From: a virus
DNA: 41,797 nucleotides
IMG/VR virus record: IMGVR_UViG_3300048072_000006
Location: 1-41,797 of that record
Strand: one strand, 5' to 3'
The position numbers and the translations under genes were made by a program. The notes below the pieces were generated by a model. The model saw only the letters and a program-made list of their open reading frames with translations. It was not told where the DNA came from and did no database searches. Shown piece by piece: positions 26,080 to 38,091 of the stretch. Within the stretch, counting starts at the first letter, position 1. Every line of letters starts with the position of its first letter.

Positions 26080-26934
26080 TCATGCCGCTTCACTCGAACA
26101 CCACGCGCCGCACTCGCTATCGGCAGCGTCCGCCTCAATTTCGTCCATTGGAAGCAAGGGGCTGGTTTGCGCGGCCCGCAGCACTTCGTCGAAGCTCTGG
26201 TATCCGAAAGAAAAGTTCCGCGCCTTTTCGTGCGCCGCCCAATACTGTGTGCCAACCGGATCGCGGCGGGCGCGGGATACGCGGGTCTTGAATTGGAGGA
26301 AGGGGCAATGATCGCAGTTGCCGGTCCCTCGCTCCAGCATCAGGTCAAAGGGCTGGACGGCCCAGAAATCCAAAACGTCACCTTTGCGCACACCATCGGT
26401 GGCCAGCGGGAAGGCCAACCTGCGCTCCGCATTACGAGGCTTGCGGGGCAGTTCATAAACCCGGTCATATTCGTCGGCGCGGAAGCCGATCACTTCGGTG
26501 TATTCGCCACGCGCGTAGCCTTGCGCCTCCATAAAATCATGCATCACGCCTACCTTGCACCGTTCGGTGCACCAGCGCCCGGTGATGGTCGAGAACAGGG
26601 CTTGCTTGCGGGCGATCAGCCTATCCAACGGCTCGCCCTTCCGGCTCGCGCTGTTGTAGCCAACTTCTTGAAATCGACTTGCCGGGCCGCCCTTCCTAAG
26701 ATCGGTCACAAATTCCAGCCAACTCACCCGGACGTTCCACCTGGTGGCGCACTCGTGAACGAAACGAAGAGTTTCCTCGCGCTCTTTGCCGGTGTTGGCG
26801 AAGAGGACGAATATATTCTCCGGCAGCGATCCGCCGTGGGCATCGATGATGCGCTTGAGCATCTTCCCGCTGGTGCGCCCACCCGAGAACGAAATCGCTG
26901 CCGGACCGGTGATGAGATATGGATTGCTACCCAT
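26080..26934 (-). CDS. PAPS-reductase/PP-loop ATP-pyrophosphatase-family protein (IS passenger gene), 284 aa
   Basis: PP-loop 'AISFSGGRTSGKML', 'RWCTERCKV', and C-terminal Cys cluster 'GNCDHCPF'. The start was re-picked at ATG 26934 ('MGSNPYLITGP'). Confidence 0.72.
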   Translation of the reverse strand: MGSNPYLITGPAAISFSGGRTSGKMLKRIIDAHGGSLPENIFVLFANTGKEREETLRFVHECATRWNVRVSWLEFVTDLRKGGPASRFQEVGYNSASRKGEPLDRLIARKQALFSTITGRWCTERCKVGVMHDFMEAQGYARGEYTEVIGFRADEYDRVYELPRKPRNAERRLAFPLATDGVRKGDVLDFWAVQPFDLMLERGTGNCDHCPFLQFKTRVSRARRDPVGTQYWAAHEKARNFSFGYQSFDEVLRAAQTSPLLPMDEIEADAADSECGAWCSSEAA

Positions 26935-27066
26935 CGGCCTGCGCCTTCTTCGCCCGTTTGGCGCGCTTCTTTCGCTCCTTCGCGGCATCTGAAACAGGCT
27001 TTGGCCGGTAGCGCAGCACAACGTCTGCAATCGCGTCCAGAGCGGCGGGAGGCTTTGGAGCGTCTA

Positions 27067-27987
27067 TCATGCGATCAGCGCCCCATAGGTCAGGCGCTTG
27101 CCCGCCGAATTGATGATAAAGCTATCCAGACGGTCCAGCGTGTGGCGCTTCACGTCGCCTTCGTTCAGCCGGAAGGCAAACTCATTGACGTAGCGGCCAA
27201 GGTGCTTCGGCGAGGCGTGGTGATAGACACCATGGATGCCGCGCTTGAGCACCGCGAACACGCTCTCGATACCATTCGTGGTGACGTTACCCCGGACATA
27301 CTCGCCAGCGCCGTGGTTGATCGTTTCATGCTTGTAGAGCAACCCGCCCACTCGGCTGTAGATTGCGCTTTCGTCAGTGTGGATGGTCGAGCCTACCTGA
27401 ACGTGGCGATGGGCGAAGCCTACCGCGTTACGCCCAGTGATCGAAGCCTTGACCTCCGCTTTGACGCGACCACTGCCCCGCTCCCGTCCAGCAATAACAG
27501 GCGTCTTGCCTACGCCGCCCCGGCCAAGTCCGAGCCGTTTGTGCTCGTGCTTCGCCGACTCCTTGCCGCCTACATAGCATTCGTCAATCTCGACAATGCC
27601 AGCCAGTTCAGTCGGATCATTGCCGCACGCTTCGCGCAACCGGTGCAGGATGAACCACGCCGTCTTTTGAGTGACGCCGATCTCCTTGGCCAGTTGCAGG
27701 CTGCTGATGCCCTTCCGGGCGGTGACCAGCAGATACATCGCATAGACCCATTTATGCAGCGGGACATGGCTGCGCTCGAAGATGGTCCCGGTGCGAACGG
27801 TGAAATCCTCTTTGCAGGCGTTGCAACGGTAATAGCCGCCCTTCCTCGCCGTAATCCTCTCGCCGCTGGTGCACACCGGGCAGCGCGGGCCTTCCGGCCA
27901 CAGCCGGTTTTCAAGGTAGGTGCGGGCGGTTTCCTGATCGGGGATCATCGCGAACAACTCGAAAGTGGAAATGGTGGACTTGGACAT
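27067..27987 (-). CDS. IS1595-family DDE transposase, 306 aa
   Basis: N-terminal zinc ribbon 'CPVCTSGERITARKGGYYRCNACKEDFTVRTGTIFE', followed by 'VEIDECYVGGK', '...IHTDES.IY...' and 'NGIESVFAVLKRGIHGVYHH', typical of Zn_Tnp_IS1595 plus DDE_Tnp_IS1595. Confidence 0.92.
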   Translation of the reverse strand: MSKSTISTFELFAMIPDQETARTYLENRLWPEGPRCPVCTSGERITARKGGYYRCNACKEDFTVRTGTIFERSHVPLHKWVYAMYLLVTARKGISSLQLAKEIGVTQKTAWFILHRLREACGNDPTELAGIVEIDECYVGGKESAKHEHKRLGLGRGGVGKTPVIAGRERGSGRVKAEVKASITGRNAVGFAHRHVQVGSTIHTDESAIYSRVGGLLYKHETINHGAGEYVRGNVTTNGIESVFAVLKRGIHGVYHHASPKHLGRYVNEFAFRLNEGDVKRHTLDRLDSFIINSAGKRLTYGALIA

Positions 27988-28031: not shown

Positions 28032-28054
28032 AGGGAGTAAAGTATATAATTCCC
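28032..28054. repeat. IS right terminal inverted repeat
   Basis: See the mobile_element entry. Confidence 0.8.
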
Positions 28055-28062
28055 CTTGTGAA
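28055..28062. repeat. Target-site duplication, right copy (CTTGTGAA)
   Basis: Identical to 26042..26049. Confidence 0.8.
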
Positions 28063-28067
28063 GGCCG

Positions 28068-28310
28068 TCACGACGCCCCTCCCTGTGTCCCGTTACGGGC
28101 ATCCTCGGGCGGATAGATGTCCGGGCGCAACTCGTGGCGAGGCAAGCCCAGCGCACGCTCAATTGCAATGACCAGTTGCGGAGGGCACGGCCTCTCGCGC
28201 TGGAACAGCGAGTAGAGATTGGCGGGAGTGCGATCTACGATGCGGGCAAGAGCAGGAATGCCGCCCGCCATATCTCGCGCTTTGGCGAAGGGAATGTGCA
28301 TTTTGTCCAT
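28068..28310 (-). CDS. Cro/YdaS-like HTH regulator, first gene of the leftward arm, 80 aa
   Basis: 'GGIPALARIVDRTPANLYSLFQRERPCPPQLVIAIERALGLPRHELRPDIY' fits the YdaS/Cro-type HTH pattern ('...IE..T.G.v.r.eLRPD'). The start was re-picked at ATG 28310; the track's N-terminal extension runs through the promoter region. Confidence 0.6.
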   Translation of the reverse strand: MDKMHIPFAKARDMAGGIPALARIVDRTPANLYSLFQRERPCPPQLVIAIERALGLPRHELRPDIYPPEDARNGTQGGAS

Positions 28311-28345
28311 GGCGTAACGATAGCGGCGAGCCTCGGGTAACGCAA

Positions 28346-28397
28346 CACAATTTATTTTACGATTGTGCTTGACCGAGCACCAATCGCATTTTACAAG
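28346..28397. promoter_or_regulatory. Divergent early promoter/operator region
   Basis: IR1 is CACAAT-N10-ATTGTG (28346-51/28362-67). IR2 is CGATTGTGC-N8-GCACCAATCG (28360-68/28377-86, one indel). The plus strand has TTGACC (28369-74)-N17-TACAAG. The minus strand has TTGGTG (rc of 28378-83)-N18-TAAAAT (rc of 28354-59). This is the most A/T-rich patch between the two arms. Confidence 0.4.
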
Positions 28398-28477
28398 GAT
28401 GACAGGCGCCACGGAGGGTCCATACTCTCCAGCACGCCCAAGCACAGGCAGCCGATTGCTGCTCACTGGAGGATAAG

Positions 28478-28648
28478 ATGACCCTTGCAGCAGAATTCTA
28501 CAGCGGCACCCGCGCTAAGGCTCCGGTGCTGGATATCGTGCGCATCGGAGACGGTCGTCGCGAGCATGTCGAGACGATCAACGTCATGGGCAAGCGCGAG
28601 GCTCGGGCAGTCGCCCGCGATCTCGGCGCCACTCCTTGGAACTTCTGA
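28478..28648 (+). CDS. Small early protein, 56 aa (below the ORF-track cut-off)
   Basis: Hand translation: 'MTLAAEFYSGTRAKAPVLDIVRIGDGRREHVETINVMGKREARAVARDLGATPWNF'. It is preceded by the same 16-nt TGGAGGATAAGATGAC initiation region as the next gene. Confidence 0.55.
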   Translation: MTLAAEFYSGTRAKAPVLDIVRIGDGRREHVETINVMGKREARAVARDLGATPWNF

Positions 28649-28709
28649 AGTCACCAGAGCACGGTCCCCCACCACCGTGCCGAGGCTGACTTTAGCTTTG
28701 GAGGATAAG

Positions 28710-29534
28710 ATGACAGAGCCAGCATTCCTGAATGAGAAATACGAGGCCACTGGCGAAACGAAGGTTTGGCTCGGCGTCACACTGCACCGCATCCGTGCCG
28801 TTGCCGCTATCGCTGCGCTCGGTATTTCCGCTGGCGATCTCGGCGGGTGGATCGAGAAGCCGGAGAATTTGCAGGCCTATGGCAACGCGTGGGTCTATGG
28901 CAACGCGCAGGTCTATGGCGACGCGCAGGTCTATGGCGACGCGCAGGTCTATGGCAACGCGTGGGTCTATGGCAACGCGCAGGTCTATGGCAACGCGCAG
29001 GTCTATGGCAACGCGCAGGTCTATGGCGACGCGCGGGTCTATGGCGACGCGCAGGTCTATGGCAACGCGTGGGCCTATGGCAACGCGTGGGTCTATGGCA
29101 ACGCGCAGGTCTATGGCGACGCGCGGGTCTATGGCGACGCGCAGGTCTATGGCAACGCGTGGGTCTATGGCAACGCGTGGGTCTATGGCAACGCGCAGGT
29201 CTATGGCAACGCGCAGGTCTCTGGCGACGCGTGGGTCTATGGCAACGCGCAGGTCTATGGCGACGCGCAGGTCTCTGGCCGAAATCACCTCGGATGGTTC
29301 TCCTGCGTCGGCAGCGAGAATGGAACGCTCTGTTGGTTCCTTAACAAAGACAAGGGTGTCACGGTCAATCGCGGATGCTTCTCCGGCTCGCTGGATCGGT
29401 TCCGCGAGGCCGTTGAGGAGACACACGGCGACAGCCCCAACGGGGAGCAATACCGCCTGCTAATCCAGTTCATCGAACTGCGGTCTCAGGATGCGCTCAA
29501 GGACTTTGATCCTGCCGAAGCGGAGGCAGGATGA
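28710..29534 (+). CDS. Hexapeptide-repeat (predicted beta-solenoid) early protein, 274 aa
   Basis: Start ATG 28710 follows GGAGGATAAG. N-terminal domain 'YEATGETKVWLGVTLHRIRAV...GISAGDLGGWIE', then 22 x (Y/S)G(N/D)A(Q/W/R)(V/A), then a Cys-containing C-terminal domain. A paralogue lies at 35394..35867. Confidence 0.8.
   Translation: MTEPAFLNEKYEATGETKVWLGVTLHRIRAVAAIAALGISAGDLGGWIEKPENLQAYGNAWVYGNAQVYGDAQVYGDAQVYGNAWVYGNAQVYGNAQVYGNAQVYGDARVYGDAQVYGNAWAYGNAWVYGNAQVYGDARVYGDAQVYGNAWVYGNAWVYGNAQVYGNAQVSGDAWVYGNAQVYGDAQVSGRNHLGWFSCVGSENGTLCWFLNKDKGVTVNRGCFSGSLDRFREAVEETHGDSPNGEQYRLLIQFIELRSQDALKDFDPAEAEAG
28878..29273 (+). repeat. Tandem repeat: 22 copies of an 18-bp unit (consensus TATGGCAACGCGCAGGTC), in frame within the CDS
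   Basis: Counted unit by unit. Variation is confined to four sites (TAT/TCT, AAC/GAC, CAG/TGG/CGG, GTC/GCC). Units 9-13 and 14-18 form a 90-bp higher-order repeat that differs at a single base (unit 11 GCC vs unit 16 GTC). Confidence 0.97.
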
Positions 29535-34269: not shown

Positions 34270-34405
34270 CCTGCTCTATCGGGCGGATCAGGCTCAGCCA
34301 GAACTGTCCATTGTACGAGGATGAGTTTTCCAACGCCACCCGCAGGCAAGCCCCAGGCAGCGGGACACCGGAAGTGGTGGATATGTCTGGGGAAAGGGAT
34401 TTGTG

Positions 34406-34654
34406 ATGGCAGATGAAGTTATTCCGCAGCGCCTGTCTGAACTGGCCGGCGAGCGCATTCTGGAAGCTGTGCCCAATTTAGAGGTGCGGCACCCGTTTGA
34501 TCCAGACGCTTCTGGAGCATGCTTCACGCTGGATGACCGAACTTATCTGGTCTTTGAAGACCCGAGCGACGGGTATCGCAGCACCGCATCCCCGCTGATG
34601 AGCTTTGCAGGCTCGGAGCCCTCAAATGGCCGACATGCCGTGACAGGAGTATAG
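34406..34654 (+). CDS. Hypothetical protein, 82 aa
   Basis: ATG 34406 is coupled (TGATG) to a possible 46-codon ORF at 34266..34406. No motif recognised. Confidence 0.5.
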   Translation: MADEVIPQRLSELAGERILEAVPNLEVRHPFDPDASGACFTLDDRTYLVFEDPSDGYRSTASPLMSFAGSEPSNGRHAVTGV

Positions 34655-34748: not shown

Positions 34749-34937
34749 CTACAAGGCTGATTCGCGCCTCTCGATCTCAGCTTCAATGGCGGCACGGATG
34801 AAGCTGGATTTCTTTTCGGCGCCGGAAAGAACCGCCTTGATCCGATCAAGCGTTCCGGCGCGAAAGCGCGCCAGCGTCTGTTCGCCGTTGATCTTGGGGC
34901 GCCCAACCTTGGGTCGGCGCTTCGGTCGCTCTTCCAT
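34749..34937 (-). CDS. Ribbon-helix-helix (CopG/Arc/Mnt-type) DNA-binding protein, 62 aa
   Basis: A basic N-terminal arm is followed by 'TLARFRAGTLDRIKAVLSGAEKKSSFIRAAIEAEIERRE' (beta-strand, helix, helix pattern). AGGAG lies 11 nt before ATG 34937. It is the lone minus-strand gene inside the plus arm. Confidence 0.7.
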   Translation of the reverse strand: MEERPKRRPKVGRPKINGEQTLARFRAGTLDRIKAVLSGAEKKSSFIRAAIEAEIERRESAL

Positions 34938-34941
34938 TTTT

Positions 34942-35006
34942 GCGATATCTCCTATTGACGTACCGGATGGCACCAAATATATAGGTGATATCGCCTGTGG
35001 TGGCAA
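34942..35006. promoter_or_regulatory. Face-to-face promoters sharing one -10 box, bracketed by a 14-bp inverted repeat (putative RHH operator)
   Basis: Plus strand: TTGACG (34955-60)-N17-TATATA (34978-83). Minus strand: TTGCCA (rc of 35001-06)-N17-the same palindromic TATATA. The inverted repeat is GCGATATCTCCTAT (34942-55) / ATAGGTGATATCGC (34981-94), matching at 13 of 14 positions. Confidence 0.55.
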
Positions 35007-35049
35007 GTATTGTGAGAGCGGCTGCCACTTATGAACAAGGACAAAGCCA

Positions 35050-35394
35050 ATGACTGACAACGAAGGCCCGCCGCAATGGGCAATGGATCGCGCCCGCGAA
35101 CTGGTCAGGGCGCAATGTCAAGCACAGGGGGTGTCCGTCGCATTCGCCGCTGACATCTTTCACCCGGAAAGGCACCCTGCGGTCAAAGTCCTCGCCGGCA
35201 TCATCGCGACGCACGAGAAGCCGCCCGTCGATCCCGATCTTGAGATCGCGCGGGAGGCTTTGGCGCTGACTTGTGAGGGGCATAGCAATCCCGGTTCCGC
35301 CGCCATGGCCCGCGCCGGGGAATACGACGACACGGCTGGCGTCACCGCCGCCCGCCATGCCCTGCGCCTCGCGCGCGAGAGGGGGGTGCTGTGA
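35050..35394 (+). CDS. Hypothetical protein, first gene of the RHH-adjacent operon, 114 aa
   Basis: AAGGA lies 8 nt before ATG 35050. No motif recognised. Confidence 0.6.
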   Translation: MTDNEGPPQWAMDRARELVRAQCQAQGVSVAFAADIFHPERHPAVKVLAGIIATHEKPPVDPDLEIAREALALTCEGHSNPGSAAMARAGEYDDTAGVTAARHALRLARERGVL

Positions 35395-35867
35395 TGGCAA
35401 AGCGTTATGAATTTACCGGCGAAACCGAGGTCTATGCGGGCCACACTTTGCACCGCATCCGCGCCATTGTTGACATGCCGGCCATCGGCGTCTCGGTCGG
35501 CGATCTGGGCGGCTGGATCGAAAGCGAAGACAATCTGCCCCATGACGGGACCGCCTGGGTATTCCCTGCCGCCAAGGCCATGGGAGAGTTTACAAGACTC
35601 ATGGGCGGCACCTTCCGGGGCGGCGCCTTCGAGGGCGGCACCTCTACCAAGTTGCAGCCGCTCTACCTCGCCGGGCTGTGCTGGCAGATCACCATCACCG
35701 ACGAACATATGACGATCGGGTGCGAGACCCACAAGCTCAGCGACTGGTGGGCCTTCGATGACAGCACCATCGATGCCATGGATCGAAATGATGCGTTGCC
35801 CTTCTGGCGCGCGCACAAGGCGACCTTGCGGGCCCTTTGCGCCGCAACCGGGAGGATCGCAACATGA
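35394..35867 (+). CDS. Repeat-poor paralogue of the hexapeptide-repeat protein, 157 aa
   Basis: 'YEFTGETEVYAGHTLHRIRAI...GVSVGDLGGWIESEDNL' parallels 28710's 'YEATGETKVWLGVTLHRIRAV...GISAGDLGGWIEKPENL'. The C-terminal 'LCW...MTIGC' parallels 'LCW...VTVNRGC'. TGATG coupling. Confidence 0.7.
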   Translation: MAKRYEFTGETEVYAGHTLHRIRAIVDMPAIGVSVGDLGGWIESEDNLPHDGTAWVFPAAKAMGEFTRLMGGTFRGGAFEGGTSTKLQPLYLAGLCWQITITDEHMTIGCETHKLSDWWAFDDSTIDAMDRNDALPFWRAHKATLRALCAATGRIAT

Positions 35868-36091
35868 AAGGCAAGGCAACCGCCGGCGGCGACCACTACG
35901 ACACCGCCGCGCCCGACCTGCTTGATGCGCTGATCGACATTCTCGGCTCGCTCAACGTGGCATCCCGGAACCCGAACATCCCCGACGACACCATTGTCCC
36001 GGTGGACATGACGATGGGCGAAATCCGCAAGGGCCTCGCCGCGATCTTGCGCGCCACTGGCGAGGGAGAGAATCGCCATGATTCTCGGTGA
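35864..36091 (+). CDS. Short paralogue of 29824..30192 ('AAPDLLDAL...ATGEGEN'), 75 aa
   Basis: GGGAGGA lies before ATG 35864, with an ATGA overlap. It shares motifs with the 122-aa protein. Confidence 0.65.
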   Translation: MKGKATAGGDHYDTAAPDLLDALIDILGSLNVASRNPNIPDDTIVPVDMTMGEIRKGLAAILRATGEGENRHDSR

Positions 36092-36260
36092 CACCTGCGC
36101 CGAATGCGGCGGGCAGGGGGCCGGCGCGCGACAGCTCTGCCCGGCGTGCGAACCGCTCTATGCGGCGCTCGATCCCCGCCATGACGCGCTGGTGACGGAC
36201 GAATGCCTGTGCGCGGACTGCATCAGGCCGGCGGCATTGCGGACGCAAAGCCATGACTGA
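36078..36260 (+). CDS. Cys-rich zinc-ribbon-like peptide, 60 aa
   Basis: 'CAECGGQG...CPACEP...CLCADC'. It overlaps both neighbours by 8-14 nt. Confidence 0.45.
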   Translation: MILGDTCAECGGQGAGARQLCPACEPLYAALDPRHDALVTDECLCADCIRPAALRTQSHD

Positions 36261-36783
36261 AAGCATGATCGCGGCGGTCGAAATCCTAGATGCATTATCA
36301 CGTCAGGTTGGCGACGCCATCTTCGCGACCGAGTTGGCTTTCTGCGGCGGCGCGCGCCGGTGTGATTTCTGGACTATCAGCCCGAATTCATCGGCTGGCT
36401 TCAAGGCGCGAGCCTACGAGGTGAAGGTCTCGCGCGCGGACTTCCGCCGCGATACCGCCATGAAGCAGCGCGAGGCGCGGCTGTTTTCGGACCAATTCTT
36501 CTATGTCACGCCGCCTGGATTGGTGCGGCCTGAAGAAGTGCCGGACTGGGCAGGACTGATCGAGTTTGACGGAGTGTCGCTCAAGACCATCGTGCCGGCT
36601 CCGTACCGCGACAAGGATGCTCCCACTTGGGAGCTTGTCGTCTCCCTGATCCGCAATAGCGGCCATATCAACCGCGACACCGACCTTTTGAAGCTGAGAT
36701 TGCGCGAGGCGGAGCGGACGATACGCCGCGCGCGAAAGTTGATCGAGGATGCCGGACGCATGGCGTGGGAGTTCGGCCTATGA
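36253..36783 (+). CDS. MmcB-like PD-(D/E)XK nuclease-fold protein, 176 aa
   Basis: 'RRCDFWTIS...AYEVKVSRADFRRDTAMKQREARLFSDQFFYVTPPGL' fits D...E.K plus the MmcB/DUF1052 pattern ('VEIKSS.ADFR.D.K....Y...CDRFYFA.P'). Confidence 0.6.
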   Translation: MTESMIAAVEILDALSRQVGDAIFATELAFCGGARRCDFWTISPNSSAGFKARAYEVKVSRADFRRDTAMKQREARLFSDQFFYVTPPGLVRPEEVPDWAGLIEFDGVSLKTIVPAPYRDKDAPTWELVVSLIRNSGHINRDTDLLKLRLREAERTIRRARKLIEDAGRMAWEFGL

Positions 36784-36843
36784 GCAGCGCGCCCGCCGCC
36801 GATCACGGGCCTGTGGCGGATACACGGGGGGAGGCTGGCGACC

Positions 36844-37527
36844 ATGCGTGATCCATCCCCGCGCGTCCTGATCGCCTGCGAGTTTTCCGGCACGGTGCGC
36901 GACGCCTTTCTGGCGCGCGGCTTCGATGCTTGGTCCTGCGACCTGCTGGCCGATGAGCGGGGCAGCAACCGGCATATCCGGGGCGATGTCCGCGATGTGC
37001 TGGGCGATGGCTGGGACCTGCTGATCGTCGCGCATCCGCCCTGCACGAGGCTGTGCAACTCGGGCGTGCGCTGGCTCAGCCGGCCGCCTCGAGGCAAGAC
37101 GCTGGCGCAGATGTGGGCTGATCTGGACGCGGGCGCGGCGCTGTTTTCGACCCTGTGGACGGCGGACGTGCCGCTGGTGGCGATCGAGAATCCGGTGATG
37201 CATCGCCATGCCGCCGCGCGCATCGCGGACTGGCGGCCGCCGGCGCAGTCTGTCCAGCCATGGCAGTTCGGCGAATGGGAGACCAAGCGGACATGCTTCT
37301 GGACGCGCGGCCTGCCGCTGCTGCGGCCGGACCATGCGACGCTGGCAGATGCCAGGCGCGCGCTCGGGCTCGACGAAGCCGCGCGGCCGGCCGCACGGGT
37401 GCACAGGATGCCGCCCGGCGCCGATCGCGCCCGCGAGCGCTCCCGCTTCTTCCCCGGCATGGCCCGCGCCATGGCCGCGCAATGGGGCGACGCCGCGCTG
37501 GCGCGGGCGGGGAGGGTGGCGGCGTGA
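36844..37527 (+). CDS. Short DNA (cytosine-5)-methyltransferase-like protein, 227 aa
   Basis: Motif-I-like 'IACEFSGTVRDAF', motif IV 'HPPCTRL', motif VI 'AIENPV', C-terminal 'FFPGMARAMAAQW'. GGGGGGAGG lies before the ATG. The local GC is very high. Confidence 0.62.
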   Translation: MRDPSPRVLIACEFSGTVRDAFLARGFDAWSCDLLADERGSNRHIRGDVRDVLGDGWDLLIVAHPPCTRLCNSGVRWLSRPPRGKTLAQMWADLDAGAALFSTLWTADVPLVAIENPVMHRHAAARIADWRPPAQSVQPWQFGEWETKRTCFWTRGLPLLRPDHATLADARRALGLDEAARPAARVHRMPPGADRARERSRFFPGMARAMAAQWGDAALARAGRVAA

Positions 37528-37570
37528 GCTGGTCGATCGTCCCCGCCGCGTCCTGCGCACAGATCGAGCC

Positions 37571-37717
37571 ATGGCTGTGACGCGCCCGGCGCACCCGATG
37601 AGCGCGCAGGCCAGTTGCGAGGCGGCGCGGGCGCACGATCTCTATCGGCGGGCACGGATGATCCACGAGCTGGCGGTGGCTGGGGTCCTGCTTTGTAGCG
37701 GGTGGATTGCACCTTGA
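37571..37717 (+). CDS. Possible 48-aa terminal ORF of the plus arm
   Basis: 'MAVTRPAHPMSAQASCEAARAHDLYRRARMIHELAVAGVLLCSGWIAP'. Weak support. Confidence 0.25.
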   Translation: MAVTRPAHPMSAQASCEAARAHDLYRRARMIHELAVAGVLLCSGWIAP

Positions 37718-38091
37718 GAACACAGGGTGAATCCGGTATATCAAAGGGGTGATGCGGCGGCGCTGAAATGCAGAAGCGCACCGCCTAAAAGTAGGCTCCG
37801 GCCGCGCGAGATAGCCCTGACGCTTAAGCCAAGGGACGGCGAGAAACGTGGAACTCGGACGCCAGAGTAGCGACTGGCCCACATCACACGGCGAGCGACT
37901 ATGGATTTGGCATTTCCCGGTCGCTCGCTCGCCACTTTGATTGGCGGCGCCTGCCAAACTGGATCGCGACCGGCGAAGTGGTGTGGAGGTGAAGCGCTGA
38001 GCACAAAAGGCGGGGCATGACCCTGAGCTGGCCTAGAGCACTTCTGGAAGCGGGAGCCGGTAGAGATTACCCCGCACTTTTTGCTAACGCG

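Follow-up and report, generated by a model that had tools for sequence, protein, structure and literature searches.

In the immI region of phage P22, the promoters Pant and Pmnt diverge and overlap, and both are repressed by Arc, a small ribbon-helix-helix (RHH) protein, from an operator that is embedded in the promoters and carries inverted 4-bp boxes; the smallest unit in which RHH proteins bind is a dimer of dimers (PMC2724298). We describe here a locus of similar design in IMG/VR virus record IMGVR_UViG_3300048072_000006, the whole of which (positions 1 to 41,797; 41,797 nucleotides, hereafter 'the window') was analysed. A lone minus-strand gene for a 62-amino-acid (62-aa) protein, probably an RHH repressor, diverges from a plus-strand operon across a 112-bp spacer that holds two head-on promoter sequences with overlapping -10 hexamers, together with palindromic sites that recur in strict register in related loci and co-vary in sequence with the protein. 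With a probability of roughly two in three, we read this cassette as one in which the protein represses its own gene and turns off a variable operon of early accessory genes as well, acting through palindromic operators at the head-on promoters.

The likeness to immI, which a first-pass annotation of the window had proposed, holds as a functional analogy. As in immI, the operators of a small phage RHH-type repressor would lie inside overlapping, opposed promoters, where one binding event would hit both; the outer boxes are inverted 4-bp sequences (TAGA in Arc, TAGG/CCTA here); the repressor gene is divergent from the operon it would control, as is mnt; and negative feedback should limit early expression, as with Arc. 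Unlike immI, the cassette has one repressor rather than two, and no antirepressor or sar-type element was detected in its cargo; the family to which it belongs spreads two to four distinct operators across some 100 bp and has one within the gene of the repressor itself, whereas immI has one per repressor; its -10 hexamers coincide; and its hosts are Alphaproteobacteria. At the sequence level, therefore, overlapping opposed promoters with an embedded operator are found, whereas two repressors, an Ant-type cargo and significant similarity to Arc or Mnt are not.

Two further groups of RHH proteins are instructive. The omega repressor of pSM19035 and ParG of TP228, RHH proteins with a flexible N-terminal arm, read closely spaced repeats, direct and inverted, upstream of genes, a layout to which that of the cassette is similar. 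Unlike these, the cassette has no adjacent partition ATPase, its sites are 16-bp palindromes at promoter-related positions rather than contiguous heptads, and no significant sequence similarity between its protein and omega or ParG was found. CopG of pMV158 is likewise a protein of minimal RHH size that represses itself from a palindromic operator over its own promoter, but the promoter under its control is a single one, that of the co-directional copG-repB operon, and has no head-on partner. CopG also lacks the conserved basic N-terminal arm, GR(P/K)(K/R)IN, found in the family of the cassette protein, whose match to the CopG family is sub-threshold (E = 0.41). CopG binds cooperatively as multiple dimers (PMC2724298).

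The cassette extends the paradigm set by Arc, Mnt and CopG and overturns nothing. What is new is the pairing of an unnamed RHH-like family with a distinctive conserved layout, in which both promoters would use one -10 region and as many as four operators stand in phase, one of which falls within coding sequence. Gene regulation in alphaproteobacterial phages is poorly characterised, and if our reading is true the cassette would supply a small and portable set of repressor, operators and promoters for use in Methylobacterium, Sphingobium and similar hosts, a series of naturally occurring specificity variants for studies of RHH-DNA recognition and for orthogonal switches, and an example of how a phage times early anti-restriction and methylase expression.

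Predicted head-on promoters and a stereotyped map of putative operators

The 62-aa open reading frame (ORF) occupies 34749-34937 on the minus strand, stop codon included (ATG at 34935-37; ORF list), and the next plus-strand gene begins at 35050. All the elements that the first-pass annotation had listed for this locus (gene, Shine-Dalgarno sequence, two promoters and a repeat) are present in and around the 112-bp spacer where it had placed them. The promoters had been described as TTGACG (34955-60, plus strand) and TTGCCA (the reverse complement of 35001-06, minus strand), each separated by N17 from the same TATATA at 34978-83, and both were recovered as such. The alphaproteobacterial sigma-70 consensus is CTTGAC-N17-CTATAT (PMC2873474). 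Set against it, the plus-strand promoter of the operon, P_div, reads aTTGAC-N17-aTATAT and matches at 10 of 12 positions, with its -35 box ATTGAC at 34954-34959 and its -10 hexamer ATATAT at 34977-82. The minus-strand promoter of the repressor, P_RHH, reads CTTGCc-N17-CTATAT and matches at 11 of 12, with its -35 box CTTGCC at 35002-35007 and its -10 hexamer CTATAT as the reverse complement of 34979-84. A common -10 region, ATATATAG (34977-34984), would thus serve both strands. P_RHH is the best-scoring site of this type in the whole window, in which six sites reach at least 10/12 against 0.84 expected, and no overlapping pair of promoters arose in 100 simulated sequences. A scan for E. coli-type promoters called none at the spacer, because it demands a T at position 6 of the -10 hexamer.

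The annotated inverted repeat is real as sequence: its arms, GCGATATCTCCTAT at 34942-55 and ATAGGTGATATCGC at 34981-94, are complementary at 13 of 14 positions with 25 bp between them, each contains GATATC (34944-49 and 34987-92), and a repeat with at least 13 matches occurred in only 1 of 1000 dinucleotide shuffles of the spacer. It is not a single bracket-shaped operator, and the arms do not cover the plus -35 and -10 boxes, as had been claimed, but abut them, overlapping by 1-2 bp and 3 bp respectively. Instead, the register of related loci shows separate palindromic operators, so that the repeat resolves into two sites, O1 and O3, neither of which is assigned a strand. O3 (34939-34954, centre 34946.5; TAGGAGATATCGCAAA on the minus strand) holds the left arm, its GATATC core and, as the earlier annotation noted of that arm, the repressor's Shine-Dalgarno sequence (CTCCT at 34949-53, AGGAG on the minus strand); it adjoins the upstream edge of the plus -35 box, and 13 further canonical loci have a site of the same position and sequence type (AGGTGATATCAACAAAATG). 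O1 (34982-34997, centre 34989.5; TAGGTGATATCGCCTG) holds the right arm and its GATATC core, spans the predicted P_div start site (about 34990) and falls in the spacer between the -35 and -10 boxes of P_RHH; no other site in the window matches the 16-bp palindrome of the family, from which O1 departs at 2 positions (0.03 matches expected). O1 and O3 lie 43 bp apart, about four helical turns, and would therefore face the same side of the double helix. Of the operator-like sites in the 41.8 kb, we take as real only those at the cassette; an operator-like copy at 1458-71 (2 mismatches) was set aside, as it lies in coding sequence, has no partner and is expected by chance.

Relatives were gathered by a profile search with a 10-sequence family alignment from alphaproteobacterial genomes and IMG/VR contigs, yielding 49 loci in addition to L001/L002; about 45 loci were compared and 44 scored for promoter geometry. 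Among the source genera are Methylobacterium, Sphingobium, Novosphingobium, Sphingomonas, Pseudolabrys, Rhodoplanes and Chelativorans. L001/L002, which harbour the closest homolog (72% identity), share the divergent layout of the window and its TTGAC and GGCAAG boxes, and an inverted repeat of different sequence (TTGATACCACCTA / TAGGTGGTGTCAA) lies at the corresponding place. The comparison of loci supports the divergent arrangement of regulator gene and operon, and in about 20 independent loci of the 44 scored, both promoters have N17 spacers and their -10 hexamers overlap at an offset of 2 bp, bearing out the head-on geometry first noted in the window. At least three copies of one 7-mer lie in the 180 bp upstream of the gene in 86% of loci, compared with 8.5% of control windows.

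Fifteen canonical loci align without gaps into a single map in which sites O1 to O4 stand in strict register. A site is a palindrome of roughly 16 bp of type TAGGTGATATCACCTA, present in three or four copies in relatives, with centre-to-centre spacings of 18, 25 and 35 bp from O1 through O4. Read from the divergent gene, the map begins with that gene's ATG and a GGAGG Shine-Dalgarno sequence, which overlaps CTTGCC; there follow O1 within the N17 spacer, CTAnnT as the -10 of the repressor promoter, O2, GTCAAT as the -35 of the divergent promoter, O3, which runs into the repressor's ribosome-binding site and ATG, and, after about 30 bp, O4 within the repressor's first codons. The P_div -35 box appears in the repressor's orientation as GTCAAT in 11 of the 15 canonical loci, and CTTGCC is conserved in most of them; the window keeps CTTGCC though the adjacent GGAGG of its relatives is lost. 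Only two of the four family sites remain in the window. O4 is absent because the N terminus of the window protein is shorter, and at the O2 position, where relatives have an intact TGATATCA or TGGTATCA core, the register alignment leaves a degenerate remnant without assigned strand, TGGCACCA (34968-34975; reverse complement TGGTGCCA). This remnant is one base from the GGTGGC-type core TGGTGGCA of a separate specificity group (L015 and L038) and two from the GGTATC type, to which the nearest relatives of the window belong; it may be left over from an ancestral specificity, or may serve a heterologous repressor. Where O4 exists (L007, L008, L014, L021, L023 and others) it lies within coding sequence, about 30 bp past the start codon, and appears to impose a recurrent N-terminal peptide motif, (L/V)(V/M)IS or STQFVVS, so that the same DNA is both operator and codons.

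The 62-residue protein and its co-variation with the putative operators

That the repeats look like operators is borne out by the way in which they change. Within a locus the cores vary in concert: GGTATC occurs four times in L021 and GCATATGC three times in L018, GGTGGC is the core in L015 and L038, and GATAAC in L005 and L043. Across loci the core tracks residue 22 of the protein, which falls in a predicted beta-strand: proline accompanies GATATC, valine GATAAC, methionine GGTATC, and threonine with a two-residue insertion GGTGGC. Concerted change of the cores and tracking by residue 22 together point to a repressor co-evolving with its operators, and the correspondence between a strand residue and the operator core is indirect support for the beta-ribbon pairing of a putative RHH dimer. 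Flanking genes differ in nearly every locus; because they are hypervariable, the small protein is the only constant candidate for binding, and judged from these sequences it very probably does bind the operators. The GATATC core itself is neither over- nor under-represented in the window (8 copies against 6.9 expected), and hence gives no sign of a link to the target of the methyltransferase encoded downstream.

The RHH label originally given to the protein stands as probable, on a predicted topology that fits and on sub-threshold matches to RHH-type families. The codon-position G+C of the ORF (0.62/0.49/0.70) is coding-like, unlike that of an overlapping plus-strand ORF, and tblastn finds a single copy of the family in the window. 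A word-indexed search of 5.8 billion proteins returned one homolog, whereas an exhaustive HMMER search gave 220 cluster representatives of the repressor family. Their consensus, GR(P/K)(K/R)IN-E--ARF--GTL-RI-AVL---E-R-DFIR-AVERE--RRE, shows the alternating hydrophobic pattern expected of an RHH topology (strand, helix A, helix B). An AlphaFold2 (AF2) model from a 72-sequence alignment, with a mean predicted local distance difference test score (pLDDT) of 85, has residues of about 20-28 confidently extended, followed by helices at 29-36 and 43-61, which is the order of elements in an RHH monomer of about 45 residues. Per-member searches with the 72 aligned sequences gave 17 weak RHH-type matches, to RHH_1 (5), PSK_trans_fac (6) and CB_ParB_C (6), the best with E = 0.0015; the top match of a profile search of the PDB was the CopG-family regulator 7by2 at the E value given above, and a further weak match was to the RHH ParB of pCXC100 (3no7).

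The only curated model to match the window protein is NCBIfam YlcI_YnfO_N (NF041551; residues 20-58, 20.5 bits, E = 3.6e-4), the model of the YlcI/YnfO family of the cryptic lambdoid prophages of E. coli, whose members are also small prophage-encoded proteins. We do not assign the protein to that family, since the score lies below the 30-bit cutoff; a literature search on the function of YlcI/YnfO returned no paper. Members of the family described here are labelled "hypothetical protein" in NCBI and UniRef, and the literature yielded no characterised one. A tblastn search found no member among cultured phages (INPHARED) and one marginal match among plasmids.

Some features of the wider family deserve mention. 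The N-terminal arm GR(P/K)(K/R)IN (residues 7-12+, encoded at 34902-34919 in the window) is nearly invariant and resembles the AT-hook core (GRP); it may contact the A/T-rich operator centre through the minor groove. Several family matches contain two to nine tandem copies of the domain (P0004, 1277 aa; P0040, 1002 aa; P0010, 122 aa; P0006; P0043; P0097). P0010 is a clean two-domain fusion, a natural single-chain pseudo-dimer, for which AF2 without an alignment gave a pLDDT of 57, too low to be informative.

A proposed repressor gate and competing explanations

We propose that a dimeric RHH-type repressor would bind the palindromic operators, which in the window are O1 and O3, flanking the two head-on promoters. 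O1 would block the P_div start site and the P_RHH spacer, while O3, abutting the P_div -35 box, would also cover the ribosome-binding site of the repressor within the P_RHH leader; O2, where relatives have it, is the mirror of O1. Because O1 and O3 sit on or beside elements of both promoters, their occupation would silence both, giving self-repression and the gating of the divergent operon at once. When there is no repressor, as just after infection, polymerase could use either promoter but not both at once, because the -10 hexamers coincide; it is from this geometry that both the mutual exclusion of RNA polymerase and the gating are inferred. As repressor accumulates it would close the gate, producing a pulse of operon expression after infection, and in a lysogen it should settle at a low, self-limited steady state. 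The RHH fold, binding, promoter activity, mutual exclusion and timing we infer from what is observed directly, namely the sequence elements, their in-register conservation and the co-variation of protein and operator.

A number of points weigh against this reading, which is drawn from sequence. The -10 hexamers are poor in some loci (CTACGT), and their function is without independent support, as the conserved CTA/TAG also forms the outer boxes of O1 and O2. Between the end of the upstream operon (34654) and the end of the repressor gene (34749) there is no intrinsic terminator or significantly stable structure; read-through into the downstream genes is therefore possible, and may largely feed them, lowering the weight of a gate at P_div. 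O3 is centred near -43.5 from the predicted P_div start, a position from which some regulators activate, and so could act positively. With two sites and a decayed O2, control in the window may be weaker than in relatives, and no inducing signal or antirepressor was identified. As for the protein, it matched nothing in Pfam even at E <= 10 and nothing in PHROG, and none of its similarities to curated RHH models or to solved RHH structures reached significance. Foldseek found no match to the monomer model in the PDB, which is to be expected because a 62-residue chain of this kind folds only as a dimer. Comparison by hhalign of the family profile with Arc, CopG and Mnt was not significant (probability <1% against Arc and against Mnt), with short local alignments that fall in the right structural register.

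It is possible to see in the protein the principal lysogeny repressor of the phage, an analogue of lambda CI whose operator specificity would define immunity groups. In relatives the cassette often lies at a prophage edge or beside an integrase gene, heading an early operon (in L018 the integrase gene is convergent with the cassette, in L007 the neighbour is a host gene, and in L028 an integrase gene closes the divergent operon), its operator specificities diversify as immunity specificities do, and the repressor would be autoregulated by design. In the window, however, the cassette sits in the middle of the early region, downstream of ERF, YqaJ, SSB and NinB genes that are transcribed toward it from elsewhere, there is a separate YdaS/Cro-like helix-turn-helix (HTH) gene at a second strand switch (28068-28466), and no integrase was detected among the window ORFs scanned. 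The cargo, moreover, is accessory (methylases, Lar proteins) rather than concerned with replication or lysis, and a protein of 62 aa has no obvious signal-sensing part, so that this role seems unlikely. Quite improbable, in our view, is that the cassette works mainly by transcriptional interference, with the opposed gene and its bound operators forming a roadblock or collision zone that modulates read-through, and P_div contributing little. The missing terminator would suit such a function, as would the fact that the repressor gene is the sole one opposed to a plus-strand flow of roughly 9 kb and the overlap of about 20 nt between the 5' ends of the transcripts predicted from the two promoters. 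Against it, the variable repressor side has, in most relatives, no gene that reads toward the cassette, and the strictly conserved ATTGAC-N17 argues for a real P_div.

Proteins of RHH type have other functions as well, and short repeats arrayed upstream of a gene, as here, recall the centromeres of ParG or omega type. The weak matches to the ParB of pCXC100 and to CB_ParB_C point in the same direction, and in four relatives an ISL3-type transposase gene lies directly downstream (with a 4-bp overlap in L001). We nevertheless regard it as very improbable that the protein binds such an array as the centromere of a type Ib partition system, serves as a type II antitoxin, or assists or regulates a transposase. 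The partner genes are missing: in the window, and in the neighbour sets of relatives that were examined, the gene has neither a ParA-like nor a toxin gene beside it. For a type Ib partition system, no ParA domain is present in the window's neighbours, and the neighbours in relatives are variable and mutually unrelated. For an antitoxin, there is no co-directional adjacent toxin gene, and the protein stops two residues past helix B, with no C-terminal extension to bind a toxin. The association with a transposase is seen in only 4 of about 45 loci. Finally, two -35 boxes at exact N17 spacing stand among the repeats, and a centromere has no need of such boxes; the same interleaving tells against a transposon end.

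Returning to an autorepressor that gates its divergent operon, the neighbours of the cassette vary on both sides, with an integrase, a host gene, a tail fibre or an ISL3-type transposase on the repressor side, and the cassette hence behaves as a portable unit. We would venture, tentatively, that the window holds one member of a widespread, hitherto undescribed family of self-contained regulatory cassettes in alphaproteobacterial prophages, in which a minimal RHH repressor with an AT-hook-like GRP(K/R) arm, four phased palindromic operators (one in the repressor's first codons) and two promoters sharing one -10 move as a unit at the head of early anti-restriction and DNA-modification cargo, and in which specificity might diversify through about one beta-strand residue to give natural sets of orthogonal repressor-operator pairs that would act as immunity types.

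The putatively gated operon and the phage around it

The operon was originally drawn with seven genes; six are well supported, at 35050-37527 on the plus strand, by ORFs, gene calls on an identical contig (L003, below), PHROG matches and the coding G+C profile. A seventh ORF (37208-37717) overlaps the methyltransferase gene in another frame, and at most its 49-codon tail (37570-37717) could be real. A leader mini-ORF of 13 codons, which runs from GTG 35012 to TGA 35053 and overlaps the ATG at 35050, was also rejected, since its G+C at third codon positions (GC3) of 0.29 is not coding-like. The six proteins are of 114, 158, 75-84, 60, 176 and 227 aa. The 176-aa product matches a PHROG 'DNA repair protein' and is nuclease-like, the 227-aa product is a DNA methyltransferase, and the other four are unknown proteins; none of the six matched an Ant, KilA or Bro-type domain, an RHH domain or another regulator in Pfam or PHROG. 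The cargo of relatives consists of small genes in varying series, among which DNA methylases, Lar restriction-alleviation proteins and a PAPS-reductase-like protein recur; so far as gene content tells, this theme is in keeping with an operon of early accessory, anti-restriction function. The cassette is absent from L053-L062, where gp158, one of the cargo genes, has distant relatives. Where the ISL3-type DDE transposase gene (Zn_ribbon_ISL3 + DDE_Tnp_ISL3) follows the RHH gene on the same strand (10001-11463 in L001; also L009, L047 and L049), the L001 overlap is one of start and stop codons, and the pair may be a conserved operon or a phage-borne transposition module.

The window, with a G+C content of about 60%, is a phage genome or a prophage; its gene set includes an SU10-like capsid protein, a tail-fibre chaperone domain, a lysozyme and the ERF/YqaJ/SSB/NinB recombination block, as well as the YdaS/Cro-like HTH gene. 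The repressor gene is the only minus-strand gene within the plus-strand early block. The gene at 34403-34654 is convergent with it, nothing follows it on the minus strand, and no tRNA or Rfam element was found around the cassette. Contig L003 (8376 bp), from Logan SRR35523485, is identical to the window over the aligned 420-bp control region and has the same gene order from the methyltransferase gene to the ERF block; as it comes from a second sample, the phage of the window has evidently been sampled independently.

Other sites in the window resemble control elements. At the second strand switch only about 18 bp separate the minus-strand HTH gene from one on the plus strand (28485-29534), whose product is a YdcK beta-solenoid repeat protein; this switch (28068-29534) may be the phage's primary control region, and a promoter-like CGTGAC-N17-TTATAT is found there at 28044-28072 on the minus strand. 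Just past the gated operon and before convergent minus-strand genes is CTTGAG-N17-GTATAT (10/12; 37713-37741, plus strand), and further promoter-like matches lie on the minus strand around the lysozyme gene (39122-50 and 39577-605). An IS1595-family transposase gene (27067-27987, minus strand) lies inside the phage genome, adjoining a PAPS-reductase-like gene (26080-27030); the RHH-gated operon of L018 has a similar PAPS-reductase-like gene.

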